From Escherichia phage pEC-M719-6WT.1: a DNA stretch of 64,000 nucleotides. This document shows, one piece after another, positions 27,563 through 37,879 of the stretch. The stretch lies in sequence record OQ845957.1. The stretch is one strand, 5' to 3'. The notes beneath the pieces are model-generated. The model saw nothing but the letters and a program-made list of their open reading frames with translations, was not told the origin of the DNA and did no database searches. The translations under genes and the position numbers were made by a program. Within the stretch, counting starts at the first letter, position 1. Each line of letters starts with the position of its first letter.

Positions 27563-27737
27563 AACTTACTCCTATATAATATTTTGTATATCTACGAGTA
27601 TAAAAATAAGCTATAACACCTGACTTGTCAACAGATTTTATAGCTTATTTGGCAGATTTTTTATAAGGCTACTGCCATCCTTCCATACCTTACCACACAA
27701 GACCAAACCATGCCGTACTCCACTTCACAGTACCAAG

Positions 27738-27775
27738 CATCACTTAAAAATCCTCTTAAAGACCCTTAAGTGATG
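27738..27775. promoter_or_regulatory. Palindrome CATCACTTAA-N18-TTAAGTGATG (copy 1)
   Basis: Perfect 10-bp inverted arms read directly from sequence. Confidence 0.6.
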
Positions 27776-27824
27776 TAAGTCTCATTTTAATGTAGCTGAG
27801 ACTAACTACCCATACCATGCCTTA

Positions 27825-27892
27825 CACCACCGAACCACACCAAACCACACCAAACCATACCAAACCATACCAAACCATACCATACCAAACCA
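27825..27892. repeat. Tandem ~10-bp repeat array (CAAACCA[C/T]AC x ~6-7)
   Basis: Direct reading: ccaccgaacc acaccaaacc acaccaaacc ataccaaacc ataccaaacc ataccatacc aaacc. Confidence 0.8.
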
Positions 27893-27916
27893 GAGCCTAC
27901 TATACCATACCGAACC

Positions 27917-27953
27917 TCACTTAAAAACCCTCTTAGAAGACTCTTAAGTGATG
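27917..27953. promoter_or_regulatory. Palindrome TCACTTAA-N19-TTAAGTGA (copy 2 of flanking palindrome)
   Basis: Near-identical to copy 1 including loop (AAAACCCTCTTAGAAGACTC vs AAATCCTCTTAAAGACCC). Confidence 0.6.
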
Positions 27954-28017
27954 CTGGTGAGTACCCGTTGGTTTATGCTGCTCAGTATACTCACCAAATT
28001 TTCTATGTCAACAACTT

Positions 28018-30234: not shown

Positions 30235-32934
30235 TCAGTGTACCTCATACCAGCTTTTACCAACCTTACCAGTGCCAGTTACAAGCGTCTCACTCTTCAA
30301 ACCTAAATTCTTAGATGCCTGACCATACATCCAGTCAGTTATAGCTTTAACTTCTTGAGTCATACTTTCTGGGCATTCCCAACTGTTTTCATCGTGGTAT
30401 GCCAGCAAAAGTCTAGCACCGATTGCTGGTTTTCGTCCATTTAATTTTGTCAACCCTTCTTCACATGCCCTTCTACAAGCAAGGTTAATTGCCTCGTTCT
30501 GAATCTGGCTTTCCGAACCCATGAGCAAATAATTCAATAACTTATGTGGAGATTTACACCACAACCACGCTCCAGCAACCTGAACAAACCCACCTTTAGC
30601 AATTGCAGCAGTCTTCCCAAAGACCTCTTCAAGAGCCTTCTTAGTCGCTTTAAAATCAGCTTCTAAGTTATCAATCAGTTTCTTAATCTTCGGCAAACGA
30701 ACAAAGTAAGTCTGCTTAGTCAATGCACCTTCCTGAGTAGTTGCTGCTTTAATGGTCTTAGCAAACTTCTCATCACCTGCACCGAACAGCAGTGCATAGA
30801 TACCATTCTTAGCTTTCTTACGACCCTTACTAATCTCGTGAAGAAGATTTTCATCCTGTGTCATACGACAAGTCAAGATATCCTGCTCATCATTCAAGCT
30901 AAAGTAAATACTGTTCAGCGTGTGAGCATCAGTACCTGAATAAACTACGTACAAGTCGTTTTCAGAGTCATAACGCAGATACTTGTCAATTTCTGGATTA
31001 AGGTATTCGTCAAAGTGTTTGCAGTAATAGCGACCATCTTCTTGACGAATAAACTCAACCTCTTCCTTACCTTCTGTTACCGCTTTGGTGAACTCTTTGT
31101 CACCCATAAAGTTACACAGTAGAACAAGCTGTGCAGAGTTCATATCAACAGATACTACGTTGGTTCCCTCTTCACAAATCCAGACTGCCCTCATTGGTTC
31201 ACCGTAAACAGCAGCACCAGAAGGTACGTTTACAATACCATATTGTGTCATACGACCAGTTGAAGTACCAAACACCATTGCACCAGCACTTAAACGACCA
31301 TCTGGACGAATCTGGTTCAACCAACCTTTCTCATCATCCTTTGAGTTCTCAATAGTTCTGCGTCGGTGCATCAAAGTATAGTACTTCGCAATCTTCTGCC
31401 CAAGTTCACCTTCGATGGTATCATAAGAAGATTCAGTCAGTTTTGGTGAAGTACGAATCAAGCAAGGTTCAAGCACATCTGTGTATTTCTTCACAGACCA
31501 ATTATGCTCGATGTACTGTACCCCTTCATGCTCAACATAGTTTAAACCGCAGCGTTCAACCATTTCATCCCACTTAGGATGTTTACGAATCATCTTCTTA
31601 TTATCTTTGAAGCGACAAACCTTAACAGGACGACCATCTGAGTCTTTCTTGTAGTTCCAATCATCAGGAATCCAACCAACAGATTTCAGATACTCTTTAA
31701 CTACTGCAACCTGAGTCATGCGTGAAACTTCAAACTCAATTGGTGTATATGGTGCATCAATCAAACCTGTGTAACGACTTGACTCAAGTTCAAAGTGATT
31801 AACAACATGATTGTTGTAGTACTTGACAGTCTTAACAGTTTTAACTGGCTTCCAATCTTTGCACTTCTTGTCAACCTTCGCATTTAGCTCATTACATACT
31901 GCACGAGCATCTTTCATTGCCACGAAACCTTCTTTGTACTCTTCTCCGGTTACCGTGTTAGTTGGTGTGTAGCAGTTACGTTTCTCTACGCTGAAAATCT
32001 TGGTAGTTGGTTTACCAAATGGCTTAATAGGATAACTTTGCATTTCCCCATTACGAACCTGCTGACGATACTTTGTCTTAGGATACTTGGTAATGCGTTT
32101 CAAACCATCTGCTTCACCAAAAGTTTCAACATACTCATTCCAAGCTTTTGCAAATTCTTCACCAGTAACTTTCCCTTTTGTCTTGATAGTTGGTGGTAAG
32201 AATGGCTCAACATCTGAAGCAAGGTCAGCAGTCATCTTATCAAGCTCTTTAACACAACTCTTCATCATGTTAATGTCAGCTTTCCAACCATTGATAGCTT
32301 GCTGGCTCATCCAGAAAGATGTTTCTTTAGCTCGCATGTAGGTTTCGTAGGTATCCACACCACACTTCTTCAGCTTCACATACTCATTATCAAGGGCACG
32401 TTTAGTTTTGGCGTTGATTCGAATATCCTCAACAACACGAGTTAAGATTTCAGCGTTCCAAACTCCCCACTCTTCAATCTCAGGCTTACGGACACCGACA
32501 CGAGCACCCCATGCAGCCAAACCATGAGAACCTTTGTAACCTTTAGGTGTAGGTCTGTCCATCCACTGAACACGAGATTGGATAAGTGAATCTTGTAAGA
32601 AATTACCCCAAGGTTTGCATTTAGGGTTATCAAAGTTCCACAGGTCAGGTGCAATGTGGTTGAACACCCACCAGTCATAACCAAGACCATTGTGAATGCA
32701 AAGACGTTTCGCCTTTAAAGCAAACTCAACACCTTCTCTCAAGCCACCCTTGATATACTTGGTGTACTTGTGACCAAGAATAGGCTCATCAGTGAATACC
32801 CACACAGGTGGTTCGTCACTGTCATCTTTGTAATCTGCAAAAGCCATTACGTGAGCTTTAGTGAACTCAAGCAGTAATCCGTCAGTTTCTGTATCGCCTA
32901 CCAGATGCAAATTTTTAAAGTCTACGTTTTCCAT
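30235..32934 (-). CDS. DNA polymerase, family A (T7/PolI-like) with 3'-5' exonuclease domain
   Basis: ~899 aa; Exo motif DTETDGL near N-terminus; PolA motif KAKNGIYALLFGAGDEK; ORF-track start at 32940 is GTG, ATG at 32934 follows GAGGGAG RBS. Confidence 0.85.
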   Translation of the reverse strand: MENVDFKNLHLVGDTETDGLLLEFTKAHVMAFADYKDDSDEPPVWVFTDEPILGHKYTKYIKGGLREGVEFALKAKRLCIHNGLGYDWWVFNHIAPDLWNFDNPKCKPWGNFLQDSLIQSRVQWMDRPTPKGYKGSHGLAAWGARVGVRKPEIEEWGVWNAEILTRVVEDIRINAKTKRALDNEYVKLKKCGVDTYETYMRAKETSFWMSQQAINGWKADINMMKSCVKELDKMTADLASDVEPFLPPTIKTKGKVTGEEFAKAWNEYVETFGEADGLKRITKYPKTKYRQQVRNGEMQSYPIKPFGKPTTKIFSVEKRNCYTPTNTVTGEEYKEGFVAMKDARAVCNELNAKVDKKCKDWKPVKTVKTVKYYNNHVVNHFELESSRYTGLIDAPYTPIEFEVSRMTQVAVVKEYLKSVGWIPDDWNYKKDSDGRPVKVCRFKDNKKMIRKHPKWDEMVERCGLNYVEHEGVQYIEHNWSVKKYTDVLEPCLIRTSPKLTESSYDTIEGELGQKIAKYYTLMHRRRTIENSKDDEKGWLNQIRPDGRLSAGAMVFGTSTGRMTQYGIVNVPSGAAVYGEPMRAVWICEEGTNVVSVDMNSAQLVLLCNFMGDKEFTKAVTEGKEEVEFIRQEDGRYYCKHFDEYLNPEIDKYLRYDSENDLYVVYSGTDAHTLNSIYFSLNDEQDILTCRMTQDENLLHEISKGRKKAKNGIYALLFGAGDEKFAKTIKAATTQEGALTKQTYFVRLPKIKKLIDNLEADFKATKKALEEVFGKTAAIAKGGFVQVAGAWLWCKSPHKLLNYLLMGSESQIQNEAINLACRRACEEGLTKLNGRKPAIGARLLLAYHDENSWECPESMTQEVKAITDWMYGQASKNLGLKSETLVTGTGKVGKSWYEVH

Positions 32935-33131
32935 TTCCACTCCCTCTCAAACATATGACTCCATACCTTACTGCAAAACGACACAAAAAGCAAGTTGACA
33001 AATCACTTGACAGGGTGTTAGTCTTGTATGCAGTGGGTTTTAACTTAAAAGACTCCCTTTACAGATTAACTATACAGATTCTTTAAAACCCTTAAAAGAC
33101 TTTTAATAGCTTTTAAAAAGCTTTAAAGTAT

Positions 33132-33148
33132 TACGTATAGAATACGTA
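33132..33148. promoter_or_regulatory. Palindrome TACGTAT-AGA-ATACGTA in divergent intergenic region
   Basis: Perfect 7-bp inverted repeat read from sequence; lies between divergently transcribed pol and plus-strand genes. Confidence 0.5.
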
Positions 33149-33191
33149 AAGAAAGAGATTAAGACTTAATAGAAACTATAAAGAGGCTGCC

Positions 33192-33614
33192 ATGCAGAGA
33201 ATGTTTGTTCACCCTGACGTAGCAAATTTCCTAAAAGCTTTGGAGAAGTTAGAAGAACTTGACATAGCTGCTCAGAAAGAATATGCTTACCATCATCGTC
33301 GAATGGTTGATGTTCAACACGAGATAGAACTTTCAGAAGGTTACGACGAAGATTTGAAATGCTCTGTTTTCGAGCATATGAAAGAGATTGCTTCTGATAG
33401 GCGTAAAGCAAAAGATACATGTTTTTTGATAGATGCCTTAAAAAAGAAGTTGCAAAGTGGAACAGACTTGTGTAGTCTAGCAACACTTCTTCAGGATGTT
33501 GAGAGTTCTTGGGATAGACATTACTTCCCAAGGTCTGAAAAGACACTTGACTTCTCTTCACCGGAAGGATTAAAATTATCACGACTTACATTAAACAAAA
33601 TGAGAGAGAAATAA
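33192..33614 (+). CDS. Hypothetical protein
   Basis: 140 aa ORF with AAGAGG RBS. Confidence 0.55.
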   Translation: MQRMFVHPDVANFLKALEKLEELDIAAQKEYAYHHRRMVDVQHEIELSEGYDEDLKCSVFEHMKEIASDRRKAKDTCFLIDALKKKLQSGTDLCSLATLLQDVESSWDRHYFPRSEKTLDFSSPEGLKLSRLTLNKMREK

Positions 33615-33615
33615 T

Positions 33616-34416
33616 ATGAAAACTGTAAATGAAATGCTGGCAGAAAAGAACATCAACGAACAATTCCTATTAACTACTGTGGAAAGCCTTGCTGTAATTT
33701 TCCGTAGCAATACTTTCACTTCTGGCTTTATGCCAGAATCACTTAAAGTTACAGATATTGACAGTGACGAATCTTTCCGCTCAACTGTAGAGTTGCTTAC
33801 CAGCAATCGTAAAATTGCTCTGGCCTCTATCGTTGTTGGTGTTGACTCTCTGGCTAAATTTCTGTTTGAGAACATGCAGAGTGGTGATTACTCTAGCATG
33901 GATGAACAAAGCATTAATATGCTGCTTAACGAGATGACTGAACAGCAAATGGTAATGGGTATTGTTGGTGGAGTATCAAGTGTCATGGCTATGCTGGAAA
34001 AGCGTATGGAAGATAAATCTTCACGCTATGACAAACTTGATTGGGGTTTCAATGTAATTTCTGAACGTGCTAAAGCGCTGGCTATTGAAACTTACCAGAA
34101 ACTGGAAGACTTGACTAAACAGGATGTAGACATTAAACTTGATGACATTCAGGTGATGGTCACTGCTCTGACGCCTGCAATTATGGTTATCATGAATATT
34201 CACGCAATTCTTGAAGTTGCAGATTTGCTGAAGTCTCCACCTTCTTTCATTGAAGAAGTCAGTGGTGGTGCAAGTGTATCTGCTTTACAAGATGTTCTTA
34301 TGCAGACTAACGTAGCAATTGTACGTGAGAAAATTGCCATTAACTTTGGTGATGAGTTCTTGCAGCAGATTGAAGCAATGGCTGAAAAGAACGGTGAAGC
34401 TATTACAATCCACTAA
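33616..34416 (+). CDS. Hypothetical protein
   Basis: 266 aa ORF. Confidence 0.55.
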   Translation: MKTVNEMLAEKNINEQFLLTTVESLAVIFRSNTFTSGFMPESLKVTDIDSDESFRSTVELLTSNRKIALASIVVGVDSLAKFLFENMQSGDYSSMDEQSINMLLNEMTEQQMVMGIVGGVSSVMAMLEKRMEDKSSRYDKLDWGFNVISERAKALAIETYQKLEDLTKQDVDIKLDDIQVMVTALTPAIMVIMNIHAILEVADLLKSPPSFIEEVSGGASVSALQDVLMQTNVAIVREKIAINFGDEFLQQIEAMAEKNGEAITIH

Positions 34417-34431
34417 TTGTTAATACCCAAA

Positions 34432-34458
34432 TAGCCTCCTTAATTGGGGGCTTTTTAT
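34432..34458 (+). terminator. Putative terminator
   Basis: AGCCTCC-TTAATT-GGGGGCT followed by TTTTTATT. Confidence 0.45.
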
Positions 34459-34474
34459 TATGGAGAGACTAAGT

Positions 34475-37381: not shown

Positions 37382-37660
37382 ATGACTGCCCGTTTGAAAC
37401 TGACTGATACGTATCTTAAGGAGGGCTTTACACCCTTCTATGAAGAAACAAATTCAGTAAAATTTAAAAAAGAGTGCTTGACTCGTATAGACGATTTCTG
37501 TAAAGTACTCATCAACAAAGGACATACGGTTGAGTTAGAATATAGAGAACTTGAGAGTGTCCTTGATGGAATCTTAGTTTCTGTTGATAATGATACCGGA
37601 TATATGTTTAGGTTAACTGACAAAACATTTGAATACGAAATTTATCGGAGAGTTGTATGA
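37382..37660 (+). CDS. Hypothetical protein
   Basis: 92 aa ORF. Confidence 0.45.
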   Translation: MTARLKLTDTYLKEGFTPFYEETNSVKFKKECLTRIDDFCKVLINKGHTVELEYRELESVLDGILVSVDNDTGYMFRLTDKTFEYEIYRRVV

Positions 37661-37879
37661 AACATTCTAAAGCGTTTGAAAAAGTATTTGGCGATTCACT
37701 GAAAGCAACTGCTGGTAAGTCTGCTGCACATTATGAAGCAAAGCGTGTTCGCACTGGTAAGACAGCACGTAAAGCAGCTAAGAAAGCTGCTTAAAAAGAT
37801 TTGACAAAGGAGTATGAAGTCTGTAACATTGTACTCCTTCAAGTTTGAAAGAAATAATTTTGAGAAAGAGGATTTAAGA

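Follow-up and report, generated by a model that had tools for sequence, protein, structure and literature searches.

A palindrome between the divergent early replication genes of a Felix O1-like phage covaries with an upstream segment and may be part of a pairing element in an early leader

The window analysed here, a 64-kb (64,000-nucleotide) stretch of Escherichia phage pEC-M719-6WT.1 (OQ845957.1), belongs to an Ounavirinae (Felix O1-like) myovirus, and a perfect palindrome lies in the gap between its leftward DNA polymerase gene and its rightward replication gene block (32941-33191 according to the list of open reading frames, ORFs). We find that this palindrome is conserved in related phages with compensatory changes in its two arms, and that a short segment further upstream changes together with them. 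The right arm must stay complementary both to the left arm and to the upstream CTTTAC, and this one rule covers every observed change. As a tentative explanation, which we prefer to the others considered below, we propose that a conserved cis element, of which the palindrome forms the 3' end, has been selected for base pairing, in RNA or in single-stranded DNA, with two alternative partners.

The initial annotation had placed a palindrome TACGTAT-AGA-ATACGTA at 33132-33148, in an AT-rich gap with TTTAAAA/CTTTAAA-type tracts. Both statements are borne out: the letters are as described, and the gap has a G+C content (GC) of 0.31-0.36 against 0.40 for the window and is rich in CTTTAAAA- and CTTAAAAG-type tracts. 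The perfect arms reach one base further on each side than first noted, giving arms of 8 bp. The segments that enter the two pairings are as follows.

33131-33149, either strand: palindrome, with left arm TTACGTAT (33131-33138), loop AGA (33139-33141) and right arm ATACGTAA (33142-33149).
33057-33062, plus strand: U1, CTTTAC, complementary to GTAAAG (33146-33151) and lying 74-89 nt upstream.
33135-33151, plus strand: 3' half of the long-range helix, in which GTATAG (33135-33140) pairs with U2 and GTAAAG (33146-33151) pairs with U1.

The chance of finding such a palindrome was estimated by first-order Markov simulations, counting perfect palindromes with 8-bp arms and loops of 0-6 nt. About 11 are expected per 64 kb and about 0.04 per 251-bp gap, and two were observed in the window, so this class is depleted. 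Because of the expectation of ~0.04 per gap, the sequence of the palindrome is not significant by itself; its significance lies in its conservation with compensatory change in relatives. The palindrome is unique even with three mismatches allowed (uniqueness here and below refers to the 64-kb window; about 25 kb of the genome lies outside it). The other perfect palindrome with 8-bp arms, AAGCAGCT-AAGAA-AGCTGCTT at 37772-37792, sits at the 3' end of a 45-amino-acid ORF (37657-37794) and is followed directly by TTGACA-N17-TAACAT (37801-37829).

Conservation was surveyed in 83 loci (13 haplotypes) of Felixounavirus, Suspvirus and Mooglevirus. The fractions of invariant columns, computed over five lineages, were:

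Third codon positions of the flanking genes: 0.34-0.39.
Spacer beside the polymerase start: 0.47.
32990-33043, promoter block: 0.80.
33081-33129, T/A-tract block: 0.88.
33131-33149, palindrome: 0.64.

By this measure the non-coding DNA of the gap is under strong constraint, with blocks that are 64-88% invariant as against 34-39% at third codon positions. The palindrome itself occurs in the following types.

Window: TTACGTAT-AGA-ATACGTAA.
Suspvirus and Sf13 type: TACGTAT-AGA-ATACGTA.
Felixounavirus: TAACGTAT-AGA-ATACGTTA.
Moogle, Michonne and Sf17 type: TATGTAT-AAC-ATACATA.

Two clades have changed both arms complementarily, C-G to T-A in one and T-A to A-T in the other. All variable columns within the perfect 7-bp arms are compensated, and the remaining variation is confined to the loop, the bases directly flanking the palindrome and the outermost position of the arms. 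In the Moogle variant, TATGTA...TACATA, the arms are still inverted copies of each other but no longer direct repeats. Pairs were counted over 24 distinct sequences, with 500 shuffles and slid positions as controls. Of the 8 pairs of the local hairpin, 2 are changed on both sides and none on one side only; 93% of the alignment cells are paired, a value reached by 0 of the 500 shuffles and compared with 16-54% at slid positions.

The right-arm columns that covary in the local hairpin also covary with alignment columns 29 and 31 (33060 and 33062), both within U1. In the Moogle type, 33062 C>T accompanies 33146 G>A and turns U1 into CTTTAT; in Felixounavirus, 33060 T>A accompanies 33148 A>T and turns it into CTTAAC. 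All alignment cells of the U1 pairing are paired, with 2 of its 6 pairs changed on both sides. When the second upstream segment, U2 (CTATAC, 33070-33075), and its partner GTATAG (33135-33140) are included, the long-range helices comprise 12 pairs with 98.6% of cells paired, 2 pairs changed on both sides and none on one side only (shuffles reaching the observed value, 0 of 500; slid controls, 8-47%). U2 and its partner have both remained unchanged together, and the same pairing rule explains their joint invariance.

These changes stand out against the small divergence of the region. The Moogle and Sf13 types, which are sister clades, differ by only 7 fixed positions across the 163-nt leader: two lie in the loop, and 33062, 33134 and 33146 make up the complementary triple. 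Felixounavirus has 9 fixed differences, three of them forming the other triple (33060, 33132 and 33148). We put the chance of both partners following a given change at roughly 1e-4 per event. The U1 variant matches the palindrome variant in all 83 loci, with no exceptions and no intermediates, three more phages adding to the comparison. Three segments have changed together in two separate clades, and both pairings therefore survive; base pairs have been maintained by compensatory substitutions in two independent events, as looked for in a structured RNA. A metagenome scan and two further pattern scans yielded no new hairpin variants, and a scan of genome contigs for more lineages gave chance matches only. 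The 14-mer AAGCAAGTTGACAA proved too unspecific as a search pattern, and two candidate further lineages (L161 and L164) turned out to be unrelated AT-rich DNA.

The palindrome is also the right end of a larger, imperfect dyad at 33057-33151, centred at ~33099-33104 (inverted repeats I1-I4). This dyad holds four copies of an 11-mer flanking an invariant T/A block.

33057, plus strand: 11-mer copy CTTTACAGATT.
33070, plus strand: 11-mer copy CTATACAGATT.
33141-33131, minus strand: 11-mer copy CTATACGTAAT.
33151-33141, minus strand: 11-mer copy CTTTACGTATT.
33081-33129, either strand: T-tract/A-tract block forming the dyad core, CTTTAAAA CCC TTAAAAG A CTTTTAATAG CTTTTAAAAAG CTTTAAAG, 88% invariant.

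The two copies on the right also make up the local palindrome, TACGTA being self-complementary. The gap further carries the motif CT[AT][AT]A[ACT]AG seven times in ~140 bp, and no other 300-bp stretch of the window holds three or more. Spectral analysis of this array gave power above that of shuffles, with a best period of 9.25, 11 or 15 bp; because of this ambiguity we make no claim of helical phasing.

The two pairings were also compared in predicted folds. The local hairpin has a 7-8 bp stem and a 3-nt loop, with a predicted energy of -5.8 kcal/mol as RNA and -5.4 as DNA. RNAalifold, applied to the predicted leader, picked the long-range helix over the local hairpin unprompted. Pairing with U1 and U2 closes an imperfect hairpin of ~95 nt around the T/A block, and because bases are shared the local hairpin and the long-range helix are mutually exclusive. 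In constrained folds the two conformers are 0.9-6.8 kcal/mol apart, and the dominant one varies by lineage. The 109-nt element folds better than shuffles on both strands, with RNA z-scores of -3.7 (plus) and -5.5 (minus) and DNA z-scores of -3.4 (plus) and -3.2 (minus). Over 33050-33158 the minus strand reaches -30.7 kcal/mol against -21 for the plus strand (z = -5.5 to -6.2 against -3.5 to -3.7). This gain comes from G-U pairs; the window, Suspvirus, Sf13 and Felix O1 show it, Michonne and Sf18 do not. In the G-U strand test the minus strand folds better where the T/A block reads CCC (window, Suspvirus, Sf13), and these are the most variable bases of the block. Some predicted folds pair CUCCCUUU with AAAGAGG as an anti-Shine-Dalgarno sequence; we rejected this pairing, as Felix O1 lacks the sequence.

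Where the palindrome lies relative to transcription depends on the promoters of the gap, which we located by position-weight scans.

32995-33024, plus strand: predicted rightward early promoter, -35 TTGACA (32995-33000), N18, -10 TAGTCT (33019-33024).
Same position in Erwinia phages: TTGACA-N17-TACATT.
Same position in Yersinia phage P778: TTGACA-N17-TGnTAATGT.
Same position in the intermediate lineage L175: an almost identical block.
33097-33069, minus strand: candidate leftward polymerase promoter, -35 TTTTAA (33097-33092), N17, -10 TATAGT (33074-33069), 7.7 bits.
33180-33194, plus strand: Shine-Dalgarno sequence AAAGAGG (33180-33186) and ORF97 ATG (33192), with AGAGG and ATG invariant in the alignment.
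34433-34452, plus strand: intrinsic terminator AGCCTCC-TTAATT-GGGGGCT followed by TTTTATT, between ORF98 and the start of the deoxynucleoside monophosphate (dNMP) kinase gene at 34460.

The rightward promoter is the top plus-strand site in every lineage (10.8-11.2 bits), and no promoter other than TTGACA-N18-TGnTAGTCT keeps its position as far out as the Erwinia and Yersinia relatives. It has a second TTGACA (33007-33012) in the spacer, an extended -10 TG (33016-33017) and a AAAAAGCAAG tract just upstream. A stricter consensus scan misses it because its -10 matches at just 3 of 6 positions. We infer a start at ~33030-33033. The palindrome would therefore lie at about +100 to +118, within a transcribed leader of ~160 nt and not in a promoter, and the conserved upstream promoter predicts that the dyad region is transcribed on the plus strand. 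The leftward candidate is a weak one. It is the only minus-strand site that keeps its position in the window, Felix O1, SUSP2 and Michonne, it overlaps U2, and the GenBank record of ASO1A annotates a minus-strand promoter there; the T/A block could serve it as an upstream promoter (UP) element. Were a leftward promoter to lie rightward of the palindrome, the polymerase mRNA would contain the hairpin, as in the T4 gp43 operator; the position-weight scan gave no conserved candidate, and we discarded this arrangement.

The hexamer TAGAAT (33138-33143) at the centre of the palindrome had been read as -10-like, and this reading was not supported. It has no -35 partner (AAAAAG at a 17-nt spacer) and no TG at -15/-14; its best score is 6.1 bits, with TTAAAA at a 19-nt spacer, and the consensus scan calls nothing there. 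TAGAAT is kept in the window, Felixounavirus, Suspvirus and the Sf13 type and is TAACAT in Moogle and Michonne, where A2 and T6 remain. This weak candidate is the only one that the palindrome overlaps, the palindrome being at ~+100 from the rightward promoter and ~-78 from the leftward candidate. AGCTTTA-N12-TAGAAT would fit a T4-like MotA-box promoter class, which we rejected: the other 8-9 matches in the window are scattered, and the motif did not recur in the upstream stretches surveyed, the match positions relative to genes not having been checked singly. Nor is the palindrome an intrinsic terminator or attenuator. Its stem has 2 G-C pairs and is followed by AAAGAAAGAG, with no G+C-rich stem and U run, and a terminator scan of 32700-33400 found none.

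Taken together, these data suggest the following mechanism for the pairing element. The host-type promoter at 32995-33024 would give a transcript in which the element lies ~25-120 nt downstream, in a leader of ~160 nt. This leader would belong to an early operon of ORF97, ORF98, the terminator at 34433-34452, the dNMP kinase and the primase-helicase. Within the plus-strand leader RNA, the right arm could alternate between the local and the long hairpin. To judge from its placement, the pairing would most probably act in this leader RNA, and the most plausible roles would be in processing or stability, in ORF97 translation, or in read-through of the downstream terminator in the manner of nut and put sites. 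The terminator, which is also annotated in the ASO1A and Michonne records, implies that the replication genes beyond it need read-through or a promoter of their own. The same complementarity would exist in single-stranded DNA. The dyad at 33057-33151 might even be a bistable switch that, in the boldest form of this proposal, also marks a transcription-primed origin, the stem and loop changes between clades being a specificity switch for a phage factor; we consider this unlikely.

Several observations weigh against a pairing element. The covariation rests on only two evolutionary events, and the upstream partner was found post hoc. The local hairpin is weak (-5.8 to -3.5 kcal/mol, the latter in the Moogle variant), the leader as a whole is not unusually stable (z = -1.5), and the predicted conformer preference is inconsistent across lineages. 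There is no Rfam family match: a scan of 32700-33500 against Rfam 15 with E up to 10 returned only chance-level eukaryotic and archaeal families, far below gathering scores. The T/A block is near-invariant rather than covarying, which points to sequence-specific recognition, by a protein or as a promoter, and not to structure alone. Co-evolution of an operator with its protein would likewise produce symmetric changes, as would template-switch correction of a quasi-palindrome. Finally, the nearest outgroups do not have the pairing element. The promoter and the CTT(A/T)A(A/C/T)AG motif array are kept in L175, the Erwinia phages and Yersinia P778, but the TACGTA palindrome is missing from all of them, and the L175 region shows no unusual structure (z = +0.3). 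Each carries an alternative palindrome.

L175: AATCTAT|ATAGATT.
Erwinia phages: TTCTA|TAGAA.
Yersinia P778: TTATCT-TTAC-AGATAA.

The most serious competitor is a double-stranded DNA operator, a possibility we regard as doubtful, in which a dimeric phage or host protein would bind the 17-19-bp dyad centred on the -10-like TAGAAT. Its more detailed form, to which we give the same doubtful standing, would make CTTTAC (33057-33062) an auxiliary site over the leftward start region, with looping across a flexible T/A block shutting off or coordinating both promoters. The geometry is classical: the inverted half-sites have 7-8 bp arms and a 3-bp spacer, about one helical turn apart, with centres separated by 10-11 bp and an odd central base. 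The symmetric changes fall at +/-6 and +/-8 bp from the dyad centre, offsets within the range usually contacted by helix-turn-helix proteins, and the third copy changes alike, as if tracking one protein. Five of the 7 sister-clade differences lie inside the 19-bp element, as in a specificity switch; the invariant surroundings are those expected for sequence-specific recognition, and the weak hairpin energy would be irrelevant. Against this, the window holds no second copy even with three mismatches, a lone covarying upstream half-site is unusual, and TAGAAT has no -35 and is lost in the Moogle clade. A screen of ORF97 and ORF98 gave no candidate regulator: their AlphaFold models (mean confidence, pLDDT, ~73) are all-helical, with no PDB match at Foldseek E <= 0.001 and no DNA-binding fold. 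Nor does ORF98 divergence track hairpin type, the Sf13 and Sf18 proteins being 97% identical. We favour the pairing element because U2 (CTATAC), the fourth copy, does not follow the changes and would have to be treated as a special case if all four copies were equivalent protein sites. The initial suggestion of an operator coordinating divergent transcription stands in part. The gap is indeed the divergent junction of leftward and rightward early replication gene blocks, in the Felix O1-like gene order, its non-coding DNA is under constraint, and the symmetry of the palindrome has been kept through two double substitutions; the palindrome, however, would lie in the leader, and the third partner fits an alternative pairing better. 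A transcription-primed replication origin seems improbable. Here the transcript of the early promoter would enter the AT-rich, easily melted dyad, and, equally improbably, hairpins on the exposed strand or hybridised RNA would let the T7-like polymerase and primase-helicase of the flanking genes start replication. The promoter is indeed followed by an AT-rich block (GC 0.31), between the genes for a family A DNA polymerase and for the dNMP kinase and primase-helicase, and this segment, with its repeat array and large dyad, is unique in the window, as would be looked for in an origin. Selection on complementarity is equally valid for single-stranded DNA (z = -3.2 to -3.4 with DNA parameters). 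GC skew switches sign at the gap, a change that is uninformative because it coincides with the change in transcription direction and gene orientation. The T-tract/A-tract motifs, moreover, are not classical iterons, no initiator protein was identified, the Felix O1 genome paper (PMC3185647) names no replication origin, and the hairpin part is not conserved in outgroups that have the same replication genes.

Two further explanations were considered, and we rate both as very unlikely. In one, twin back-to-back promoters, the mirrored modules TATAG(T/A)-N4-6-GTAAAG would share the T/A block as a bidirectional upstream element. The leftward -10 would be TATAGT (33074-33069) with a start at ~33062, the rightward -10 TATAGA/TAGAAT (33136-33143) with a start at ~33148-33150, and the palindrome a side effect of the self-complementary TACGTA. 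The mirrored elements are visible in the sequence, and an ATAGA(A/T)(A/T) motif is shared by the window, the Erwinia phages, L175 and P778. In the Erwinia phages a strong second rightward promoter, TTGACT-N18-TGnTATGAT, occupies the corresponding position, directly before the ORF97 homologue. The rightward module, however, has no usable -35 at 16-18 nt (6.1 bits), and twin promoters fail to explain why the arms change in step or why the Moogle clade keeps inverted and not direct identity. In the other, the palindrome would have no function of its own and would reflect template-switch 'correction' in a quasi-palindrome during replication, inherited by whole clades. Template switching in quasi-palindromes is well known to cause mutations in E. 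coli and phage T4, there are only two events, each clade-wide, and a palindrome of this size is expected at ~0.04 per gap. Yet each event requires two extra templated changes to be fixed, with no intermediate in 83 loci, the region is far more conserved than synonymous sites, and the depletion of perfect palindromes (2 against ~11) makes the retained one stand out.

The gap corresponds to the 96/97 junction of Felix O1, between the polymerase gene and ORF97. Leftward from 32940 runs the family A DNA polymerase gene (ORF96; likely ATG at 32934), and rightward from 33192 follow homologues of ORF97 (140 amino acids) and ORF98 (266 amino acids), a dNMP kinase and a T7-like primase-helicase, ORF97 being the first gene of the rightward operon. 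The closest records over the gap are from Suspvirus (SUSP2, EcSzw-2; ~87% identity), and ~258 phage records align over its entire length at 80-87%. The IMG/VR contig IMGVR_UViG_3300045988_001525 is near-identical to the window at the gap. Compared with this contig and ERZ773216 NODE-169, the window differs at three sites in or beside the gap (32919, 33004 and 33100), which amount to two substitutions and one single-base indel and leave the ORF97 protein unchanged. The Felix O1 genome paper assumed early divergent promoters at the 96/97 junction and reported none recognisable; by reverse transcription PCR it found ORFs 96, 101 and 105 transcribed within 5 min of infection (<=5 min), the rightward ORF97 itself being unreported. 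It also asks how the many terminators are passed, and reports no MotA/AsiA-type proteins and no phage RNA polymerase gene (PMC3185647). In the literature on Felix O1-like phages we found promoter predictions only, and no start-site mapping or transcriptome for any member.

Neither ORF97 nor ORF98 has a Pfam domain above threshold, and ORF97 is without a named PHROG function. ORF98 (33616-34416, plus strand) receives a doubtful 'minor tail protein' label through PHROG 4251; the gene sits among replication genes. Its identity between genera is only 39-50%, against 90-95% for the polymerase N-terminus. The near-identity of the Sf13 and Sf18 proteins despite differing flanks indicates mosaicism. 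In Shigella phage Silverhawkium (L014 1625-1768) a short extra ORF between ORF97 and ORF98 resembles the N-terminus of the SUSP1 ORF98 homologue, which suggests a recombination scar at the fast-evolving ORF98. Distant relatives carry additional genes that separate the polymerase gene from the control region: an HNH endonuclease gene in the Erwinia phages (L011 487-963, L013 485-961), and a 40-amino-acid ORF in Yersinia P778 (L012 944-1066), which has no ORF98. Elsewhere in the window, a 455-nt gap between minus-strand genes (27563-28017) contains two strong sigma-70-like minus-strand promoters.

28011-27984, minus strand: sigma-70-like promoter TTGACA-N16-TATACT.
27631-27603, minus strand: sigma-70-like promoter TTGACA-N17-TATTTT.

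Felix O1-like phages are widely used in Salmonella typing, biocontrol and therapy, and their early transcription, its temporal control and their origin are unmapped. To this our analysis adds a conserved host-type promoter, a candidate leftward promoter and, behind the rightward promoter, a covarying cis element that is unique in the window. The element gives concrete targets for start-site mapping, mutagenesis and reporter design.

Several known systems resemble the proposed pairing element in part. The nut (boxB) and put sites of lambdoid phages are leader-RNA hairpins just downstream of early promoters, after which RNA polymerase reads through terminators. Here, too, a short hairpin in a predicted early-operon leader lies behind a host-type promoter, its stem and loop vary coordinately between related phages, and an intrinsic terminator follows two genes on, before the replication genes. 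We did not find a boxA-like element, a gene resembling N or Q, or a second site serving the leftward operon, in contrast to nut and put; unlike boxB, the loop is 3 nt, the stem A/U-rich and Rfam gives no match. The RNase III hairpins of T7, such as R0.3 ahead of gene 0.3, are likewise long imperfect leader hairpins with internal loops between early promoters and the first gene, in a virulent phage with a T7-like replisome. The helices here, however, are short (6 + 3 + 6 + 7 + 9 bp), A/U-rich and interrupted, and T7 has no alternative local hairpin. The 17-19 bp dyad with half-sites one turn apart in a divergent A/T-tract region recalls the lambda OR/OL, P22 and 434 operators and the phi29 p4/p6 region, from which it differs in being a single copy in 64 kb, in lying ~100 nt downstream of the best promoter with no repressor gene found, and in having a third covarying copy 74-89 bp away. 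The T7 primary origin and T4 oriF/oriG also combine a promoter (here with two tandem TTGACA boxes) and an AT-rich block, as found here beside T7-like polymerase and primase-helicase genes; an origin here would depend on the host polymerase instead of an RNA polymerase of the phage, and would carry a conserved hairpin-forming dyad. In phage N4, the early promoters to which a virion RNA polymerase responds are DNA hairpins whose stems have 5-7 bp and whose loops have 3 nt. The 7-8 bp stem and 3-nt loop with a central purine resemble these, although the hairpin is a single copy and the window has no ORF near the size of the N4 virion RNA polymerase. Regulatory hairpins and operators are common in phage early leaders, so an element of this kind is unsurprising; the three-way covariation is the unusual detail.

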